A stretch of DNA of 64,000 bases from Escherichia coli. GTDB lineage: Bacteria; Pseudomonadota; Gammaproteobacteria; Enterobacterales; Enterobacteriaceae. The position numbers and the translations under genes are program-made. The stretch is taken from the NCBI RefSeq assembly GCF_009931435.1, contig NZ_CP043414.1; one strand, 5' to 3'. The notes under the pieces are model-generated. The model had not been told where the DNA came from. It made no database searches and saw only the letters and a program-made list of their open reading frames with translations. Positions 34,346-35,264 of the stretch are shown here, piece by piece (position 1 is the first letter of the stretch; every line of letters begins with the position of its first letter).

Positions 34346-35264
34346 GAATCTTGACCTTTTTTGCTGTTATCGCCACTCCCTGCCGTGGAAGTCAGCTTAG
34401 AACAATGTACTCCCCCAGGACGGCGTTTTGAAGGTCTGCAGAATAAGATTTTGCCAGAGGGGAAGACTCGATTGTGCTGTTAATAACTTAATAATGGCAA
34501 AATAATGAGGTGTATATGCTTAGTAATTAATGTTATGTAGTGAATTGTTCTGATTCTTAATTGTGAGTGTGGTTTTTTTATCTGTAAGATAATTGTTTGA
34601 AAATGCCTCGTTTAAGAATTCACTAATGAATCGTGATGATGATATTTCCGCATTACGGAGAGTTTAACAGCGTGATGATTTCCGAGGTGTCGTAATGGGT
34701 GCAAGGTGTGAAACTATTGTTAAGCGGGATTAATGAATGAGGATGATGCTAATTAATTATTATTTAATATTCAAAAAGGTTTTGTTGTGCTTATTAATAA
34801 TAGAAGATTACTTTGCCTAACATAACATAACTTTGCATCAGATAATTCGCAATGACCCTTATAAATAAAAGGTTTTTGGGGTAAAATGCTCGCATAAATG
34901 ACGGATCCCTGCTCTTGATGCCGCCTCACCATTGCTGTTTGTACGTGTTCGCGTATGACCAGCGATGCTGCACGAGAGTGGAACAAGGACTCACATTTAC
35001 ATTTATACAAACACGCGCATGTCATAAATACAAAAGAGTGAGTAACTTAATAGATATGCGATTCCTGAAGATATATTCTGTGATCTACTTCAGGCATTAT
35101 AACGGAACAATGTGAGTCGCTTTTTTAGTGCAACTCATATGCATTTTTACTTTCGTCCGGGTTCCGGATGAAACTGCCAGGGAGGCACATTACAAATGGA
35201 ATTGCTTGTTTGTGTGTGCACAGCATTAACCAGCTCAGTACGAGCCGCCAGTAAGTGATAATAT

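Follow-up and report, generated by a model that had tools for sequence, protein, structure and literature searches.

The alaA–lrhA intergenic region

The DNA analysed here is a stretch of 64,000 nt from Escherichia coli (contig NZ_CP043414.1), referred to as the window, in which alaA, on the minus strand with its start at 34345, and lrhA, on the plus strand with its ATG at 35265, diverge from an intergenic region of 919 bp (34346-35264). This gap, which as a whole is assigned to neither strand and has a GC content of 0.383, is best understood as a composite control region of the two divergent genes, comprising leader and promoter of alaA, an AT-rich tract, the promoter of lrhA, and a leader of the lrhA mRNA that is targeted by small RNAs (sRNAs), and the probability of this reading is estimated at about 90%. 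The element is not unexplored but already described in the literature. It corresponds to positions 2406642-2407560 in MG1655, from which it differs by 27 single-nucleotide polymorphisms across the 919 bp, the window strain being a non-K-12 strain, and it is 100% identical to the gap of E. coli strain Z0117EC0005; RefSeq lists no features inside the gap, neither in the matching-strain record (NZ_CP098223.1) nor in MG1655. At 34522-34528, six of seven adjacent bases differ between the window and MG1655 (AGT-ATT versus TAC-TGC), which looks like a single multi-base event and not like independent polymorphisms. Of 5426 complete E. coli genomes, all but one hold the region; in 42 of these 5425, less than 80% of the gap is covered in one piece, and the matching places outnumber the matching records by 26.

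The initial annotation, made from the letters of the window alone, had described the gap as the longest non-coding stretch (about 920 bp), as strongly AT-rich with two quoted runs, and as lying upstream of lrhA, including its leader, in divergent orientation to alaA; all of this holds. Among the window's 37 intergenic gaps with 50 bp or more, it ranks first in length, followed by the lrhA-nuoA gap with 629 bp, and its GC content of 0.383 compares with a length-weighted 0.459 in the other gaps and 0.52 in the window as a whole. The lowest GC of any 400 bp in the entire window (0.30) is found at 34478-34877, and the two AT-rich runs are located at 34488-34507 and 34753-34772. Length and AT-richness are more than chance and not specific to this strain. 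When the lrhA locus was taken from 80 Enterobacteriaceae species, alaA was found divergently upstream in 78, with gaps of 764-1140 bp (median 943) and a gap GC of 0.35-0.44 versus 0.50 for the surrounding loci, and the lowest-GC decile lies at the same relative place in the orthologs, about 90-180 bp upstream of the lrhA promoter. One contig labelled 'Chryseobacterium sp. 18061' (L064) carries a typical Enterobacteriaceae alaA-lrhA locus with 94% AlaA identity and is likely a contaminated or mislabelled assembly.

A MAFFT alignment of 79 gaps, those of the 78 species and that of the window, divides the region into parts of very different identity to E. coli. The part adjoining alaA (34346-34452) has a high identity of 0.6-0.9, 34446-34700 is near-random, 34706-34775 is moderate (0.5-0.7), 34837-34892 is conserved, 34894-35175 is poor (0.1-0.45), and 35186-35264 is again conserved (0.6-0.8). 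The conserved blocks coincide with the alaA leader, the -35 and -10 elements of lrhA, and the last approximately 90 nt of the lrhA leader.

The population comparison covered eight E. coli genomes (the window, MG1655, W, an O157:H7 strain, and four others). At the 4-fold degenerate sites of alaA and lrhA, 46 of 343 positions segregate (diversity, pi, 0.043), followed by the AT-rich tract (27/380; pi 0.025), the lrhA promoter (2/68; pi 0.012), the 5' part of the lrhA leader (5/283; pi 0.0054), its 3' part (1/89; pi 0.0028), and the alaA leader (1/100; pi 0.0025). Divergence from E. albertii follows the same order, with 0.52 at 4-fold sites, 0.29 in the AT-rich tract, 0.24 in the 5' part of the lrhA leader and 0.01 in its 3' part. 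In the lrhA leader as a whole only 6 of 372 aligned columns segregate, and the difference between its 5' part and the 4-fold sites is highly significant (Fisher p = 3e-8). As segregation in the leader and its divergence from E. albertii are both below those of 4-fold sites, the whole lrhA leader is under purifying selection in Escherichia.

The lrhA promoter and its transcription start site

The sigma-70 promoter of lrhA lies at 34858-34887 on the plus strand, with a -35 element TTATAA (34859-34864), a 17-nt spacer, and a -10 element TAAAAT (34882-34887). The -35 is embedded in the conserved sequence CTTATAAA (34858-34865), which belongs to the conserved block 34837-34892. The published transcription start site can be placed at window position 34894 by way of the oligonucleotide table of the eLife study (eLife 2023, PMC10578931), in which the lrhA-M1 gBlock and the reporter primer SM079 share the opening sequence ATAAATGACGG (ATAAATGACGGATCCCTGCT). 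The -10 is found seven nt upstream of 34894, a distance that fits the published +1, and the conserved -35 and -10 elements thus give independent support for the lrhA promoter and for a start at this position. An earlier Hfq coimmunoprecipitation study did not find a start site near the lrhA ATG (Bilusic et al., RNA Biol 2014, PMC4152368).

The start at 34894 results in a 5' untranslated region (5' UTR) of 371 nt on the plus strand (34894-35264), exactly the length that has been reported for lrhA (Melamed, Zhang et al., eLife 2023, PMC10578931). The long 5' UTR that had been considered at first is therefore real, and transcription does not begin close to the ATG. The suggestion of multiple promoters has fared differently: the sole hint to a second lrhA promoter is one weak consensus match at 34817-34846, and beyond that match nothing speaks for several lrhA promoters. 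A promoter consensus scan of the gap gave two promoter-like matches versus three expected, and did not pick up the actual promoter of lrhA.

Hfq and small RNAs at the lrhA leader

The lrhA leader is bound by Hfq and targeted by several sRNAs. By RNA interaction by ligation and sequencing (RIL-seq), chimeras with UhpU, ArcZ, RprA and McaS have been found on it, and a translational lrhA-lacZ fusion is repressed by UhpU, ArcZ and RprA, though not by McaS (PMC10578931). Hfq coimmunoprecipitation had already recovered an RNA termed 'ig-lrhA-alaA' with Hfq-bound species of 150 and 350 nt, which are very scarce in total RNA, and the 1.5-kb lrhA mRNA accumulates in an hfq mutant (PMC4152368). Tn5 insertions in the gap have been reported to cause hypermotility, as do lrhA knockouts.

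For UhpU, pairing has been proven by the compensatory mutations uhpU-M1 and lrhA-M1, with which repression was lost and then restored (PMC10578931), and the oligonucleotides permit a precise localization of the site. The lrhA-M1 gBlock equals MG1655 from 34894 on, except for a C-to-G exchange at -16 relative to the lrhA start codon (C35249G in window coordinates), and the primer for UhpU-M1 turns ACUGGUG into ACUCGUG. The two mutated positions partner each other in a 7-bp duplex of CGCCAGU with ACUGGUG, and the UhpU site can therefore be assigned to CGCCAGU at 35246-35252 (-19 to -13, plus strand). This is directly 5' of a weak Shine-Dalgarno-like AAGUGA (35253-35258), which together with the lrhA AUG (35265-35267) makes up the initiation region 35253-35267 on the plus strand; the GTG in AGTGA and the lrhA ATG are invariant across 35 genera. 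Between the window and MG1655, the leader differs at four positions (34940, 35031, 35063, 35241), none of which is in a pairing site.

The other sRNAs can be assigned to sites by conserved complementarity. The most conserved block of the leader (35194-35225, plus strand) contains AAAUGGAAUUGCUU at 35194-35207 and GCACAGCA at 35218-35225 (-47 to -40), and GCACAGCA is complementary to UGCUGUGU, a sequence common to RprA and McaS. The CACAGC hexamer within GCACAGCA is about 99% conserved in the 78 species and is the most conserved hexamer of the leader. A candidate site for ArcZ is CCAGGGAGG at 35177-35185 (-88 to -80, plus strand), which is complementary to UUUCCCUGG of ArcZ and kept only in Escherichia, Citrobacter and Salmonella. 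It is thus likely, judging from these complementarities, that RprA pairs at -47 to -40 and ArcZ at -88 to -80; the sites of RprA, McaS and ArcZ are inferences made here, and that of UhpU alone is experimentally anchored. An 8-mer that occurs in the same sense in RprA and in the leader (GAAUUGCU) was dropped, as it is at chance level by estimate (about 0.5 expected). The last approximately 90 nt of the leader, in which all these sites are found, have an identity of 0.5-0.8 across the 78 species and differ by 1% from E. albertii, versus 52% at 4-fold sites.

The first 280 nucleotides of the leader

The remainder of the leader, its first approximately 280 nt (34894-35175), has within E. coli about one eighth of the polymorphism of 4-fold sites and is at the same time unalignable between genera. 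About 40 nt of it (35016-35056) have no counterpart in roughly 80% of the other genera, which makes this segment a lineage-restricted insertion in the UTR. The constraint on the first 280 nt is the sole point here that goes beyond the published picture. It may be that this part of the leader has an Escherichia-specific function in addition to the known sRNA sites, for example a processing signal or an RNA fold that directs processing to the 150- and 350-nt species, which could in turn act in trans as a sponge for McaS, RprA or ArcZ. This proposal is speculative and considered quite improbable, and if it were true, the lrhA leader would be both target and regulator in the network of motility and RpoS.

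More generally, the leader itself, or a fragment processed from it, could be a regulatory RNA in its own right, that is, an Hfq-bound sponge derived from the 5' UTR that titrates McaS, RprA or ArcZ besides being their target. Stable Hfq-bound species of the two sizes mentioned have been reported, McaS gives more RIL-seq chimeras with lrhA than the other sRNAs and yet does not repress, from which the authors suggested an inhibition of McaS (PMC10578931), and constraint in E. coli is strong over the first 280 nt, where no site has been mapped. The fragments, however, are very low in total RNA, the Hfq-type motif (ARN)4 does not occur on the leader strand, and there is neither an internal terminator nor a conserved structure, which altogether renders a sponge unlikely. 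With regard to a conserved structure, such as that of a riboswitch or RNA thermometer, RNAalifold was run on 35 genera over the final 105 nt of the leader and 15 nt of the coding sequence and predicted 0 pairs, and a GCUC/GAGC hairpin of the leader has no more covariation than shuffled sequences; the whole leader folds as a single sequence somewhat better than shuffles (minimum free energy z = -2.25). Stretches that resemble rut sites, C-rich and G-poor as a Rho-dependent attenuator would have them, are not present in the leader, where the C/G ratio in 78-nt windows is 0.7-1.4 with no sustained bias.

Another explanation, that the gap hides an unannotated gene for a small protein, an upstream open reading frame (uORF) or an independent sRNA, is very improbable. 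There are several open reading frames (ORFs) of 25-84 amino acids in the gap, one of which, at 35168-35254, has 28 codons and stops 10 nt short of the lrhA AUG; this ORF is intact in E. albertii and in L005, a locus labelled as E. coli. Its survival in Escherichia is uninformative, given the roughly 99% identity of this stretch within the genus. The ATG of the ORF is not conserved, and no Shine-Dalgarno sequence is seen ahead of it. Of the 11 candidate ORFs in the gap, not one is conserved: each is intact in 0-5 of the 79 sequences, and none beyond Escherichia. A scan of 34346-35264 with the covariance models of Rfam 15 gave no match, even at E <= 1, a consensus scan detected no terminator-like site inside the gap, and a literature search did not link lrhA to a uORF or to bicyclomycin. 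The initial annotation had considered an unannotated sRNA or ORF; what stands of the former are the reported Hfq-bound leader fragments of 150 and 350 nt, which do not come from a separate gene and have no match in Rfam, and an ORF is not supported, none being conserved.

The AT-rich middle

The middle of the gap is an AT-rich, fast-evolving tract (34446-34825, no strand assigned; GC about 0.30) with an identity between genera of 0.2-0.45, except for an island at 34706-34775. This island (GTGTGAAACTATTGTTAAG ... TTAAT ... TTAAT ... TTTAATA) is located at -188 to -119 from the lrhA start site and is probably a protein-binding site. Several proteins are known from published work to bind in the alaA-lrhA spacer. 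Binding of Lrp, which is a direct activator of lrhA, and of OmpR has been found by chromatin immunoprecipitation, CpxR binding has been reported as well, and RpoD holoenzyme gave peaks in the '920-bp lrhA-alaA spacer' in systematic evolution of ligands by exponential enrichment (SELEX) (Shimada 2014). A positive autoregulation has been reported for LrhA itself. Matches resembling the Lrp consensus occur at 34453->34439 (CAAAATCTTATTCTG) and at 34538-34552, each with two mismatches, and with these the gap holds 2 of the 12 Lrp-like matches of the window in 1.4% of its length.

An alternative view is that the AT-rich middle is for the most part only a loosely constrained spacer between two promoters, the AT-richness of which reflects mutation bias. 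In agreement with this, the diversity of the tract is the highest in the gap, with about 55-60% of the 4-fold level, and the tract is nearly unalignable between genera. Its diversity is nevertheless still below that of 4-fold sites (Fisher p = 0.006), the block at 34706-34775 is conserved, and the length of the gap has been held at 764-1140 bp in the 78 species despite the turnover of its sequence. Useless DNA tends to be lost by bacteria, which counts against a mere spacer, as does the reported binding of several proteins, and the spacer explanation therefore seems rather unlikely.

It has also been considered, from the initial annotation on, that the tract is of the kind bound by H-NS, and it could in that case act mainly as a platform for H-NS nucleation and silencing that sets the expression of lrhA, and of alaA. 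What speaks for this is the AT-richness, with the lowest 400-bp GC of the window in 34478-34877 (0.30 versus 0.52) and with a low GC that is kept in the orthologs though the sequence is not, together with a 2026 paper according to which H-NS strongly represses lrhA in BW25113, the repression being weak in ER2738, a result on mRNA levels and not on binding. The hns effect on lrhA could, however, be indirect, and a genomic SELEX map with 987 H-NS sites, in which many spacers are marked, does not mark lrhA-alaA; this map was made on DNA of W3110, which has an IS1 in the gap. The gap furthermore contains no match to the high-affinity H-NS nucleation motif TCGWTWAATT within one mismatch (the window has 11 matches versus 15 expected), and AA/TT dinucleotides, the phasing of which would indicate intrinsic curvature, are not phased at 10-11 bp in E. 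coli (z = 0.25). In the orthologs, A-tract phasing is mild, with a mean z of 1.39 and 29% exceeding 2, as measured against a liberal mononucleotide shuffle. The AT-richness and the reported hns-dependence of lrhA mRNA stand, the unmarked spacer and the lack of the motif do not fit, and the phasing, absent in E. coli and mild in orthologs, points clearly in neither direction. Direct binding of H-NS and a role of the tract mainly in H-NS silencing are both possible, albeit somewhat unlikely.

The alaA side of the gap

The 100 bp adjoining alaA are conserved almost at the level of coding sequence. On the minus strand, the segment 34346-34452 would comprise the alaA leader and a candidate core promoter with a -35 TTCAAA (34432->34427), a 17-nt spacer and a -10 TACATT (34409->34404), from which transcription is predicted to start near 34397; this would give a leader of about 52 nt. 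Within it, a 16-nt element CUUCCACGGCAGGGAG (34391->34376, minus strand) is conserved to about 0.9 at most positions in the 78 species, and an Hfq-type (ARN)4 run AACAGCAAAAA (34368->34358, minus strand) is found just 5' of the alaA Shine-Dalgarno sequence. Element and run hint at a possible post-transcriptional control of alaA. A different alaA promoter has been predicted by Shimada 2014 (TTAAGA, 17-nt spacer, TATAAC). It maps to TTAAGA at 34560->34555 with the -10 at 34537->34532, which is in poorly conserved sequence, and the -10 reads CATAAC in this strain.

IS1 insertions and other observations in the window

In K-12 W3110, a 768-bp IS1 is inserted in the lrhA leader at a site equivalent to 35118-35126 of the window (+225 to +233), flanked by the 9-bp duplication CGCTTTTTT (L096:11313-13007). 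It splits the native lrhA promoter from the coding sequence, and the end with the insA promoter faces lrhA. This explains why Shimada 2014 lists CTGCCA-16-TATGAT as the lrhA promoter, as this is the promoter string of the IS1 inside the leader, and caution is needed with W3110-based datasets, which are affected by this insertion. A different case is strain SCPM-O-B-12142 (L089:3501-5900), in which an IS1 lies in the AT-rich tract at about 34508 and is followed by a loss of lrhA, the nuo operon, and the genes up to elaD.

Two further AT-rich parts of the window were noted. The lrhA-nuoA gap (36204-36832), which is the second-longest, has a GC of 0.39 and contains several matches that resemble the CpxR consensus, the best of which is GTAAACTAATGTGAA at 36639-36653. 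GC is also very low, with values down to 0.22 per 200 bp, at about 53300-56650, the window's other zone of this kind, which spans elaD and the pseudogene yfbL; in this strain, yfbL is interrupted by an internal stop.

The gap as a probable composite control region

Taken together, the gap can be described from left to right. The left end, from 34346 to about 34452, holds the short alaA leader and probably the alaA core promoter. The middle (34446-34825) is an AT-rich tract that carries sites for global DNA-binding proteins, with published binding of Lrp, OmpR and CpxR. The sigma-70 promoter at 34859-34887 fires at 34894 and gives rise to an lrhA mRNA with its 371-nt leader, to which Hfq binds. 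Beside the ribosome-binding site, UhpU pairs at -19 to -13, whereas the likely sites further upstream are -47 to -40 for RprA and -88 to -80 for ArcZ. Pairing of the sRNAs lowers LrhA synthesis, probably by a block of initiation and by a cleavage that leaves Hfq-bound leader fragments, a mode of action that we infer, and less LrhA results in more FlhDC and more motility.

Several points weigh against this composite reading. The first 280 nt contain no mapped or inferred sRNA site, which leaves most of the length of the leader unaccounted for. Seed-restricted duplex-energy scans with ArcZ, RprA, McaS and UhpU were no better on the leader than on shuffled leaders, and full-length duplexes of sRNA and leader are unrealistic; as the scans alone do not support the sites, their assignment relies on conserved complementarity and on the mutants that have been published. 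In the gap, no recognisable site for the CpxR consensus was found, and both Lrp-like matches deviate from the consensus at two positions. The alaA start, finally, is a candidate only, with two rival predicted promoters.

LrhA represses flhDC and has been reported to act also on fimbriae, RpoS and CRISPR-Cas, and because it controls flhDC and these other targets, its level matters for motility and host colonisation. This role of LrhA and its long, sRNA-targeted leader have already been published. What is added here are the exact coordinates in a strain outside K-12, a conservation map across the family that sets the promoter and the last approximately 90 nt of the leader, which are deeply conserved, apart from the rest of the leader, which is constrained only within Escherichia, and the caution regarding the IS1 of W3110.

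Comparison with known systems

The element is the same as the lrhA 5' UTR of E. coli K-12 (PMC10578931, PMC4152368), with 371 nt and no difference of substance. Shimada 2014 groups lrhA-alaA with csgD-csgB and nanC-fimB as unusually long divergent spacers. With the H-NS-silenced regions of leuO, bgl and proU, the gap shares the low GC and an hns-dependent mRNA level; unlike these, it is unmarked in SELEX, without the H-NS motif and without A-tract phasing in the E. coli sequence, and it is family-wide core DNA that is not foreign.

As to the leader, the closest likeness is with rpoS, flhDC and csgD, the leaders of which are, like that of lrhA, several hundred nt long and Hfq-dependent, and are targeted by several sRNAs including ArcZ, RprA and McaS. 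As a difference, the known effects on lrhA are all repressive, and there is no conserved structure and no sign of an inhibitory hairpin that would be opened by sRNAs as in rpoS. In Photorhabdus, Xenorhabdus and Dickeya, the lrhA orthologs hexA and pecT are likewise repressed by ArcZ, which pairs upstream of the ribosome-binding site, at -50 to -42 in Photorhabdus hexA and at -84 to -58 in Dickeya pecT. The candidate ArcZ site of E. coli at -88 to -80 is thus at a distance similar to that of the sites in hexA and pecT, but it is confined to Escherichia, Citrobacter and Salmonella, and the ArcZ sites of E. coli lrhA and of hexA and pecT may have arisen separately.

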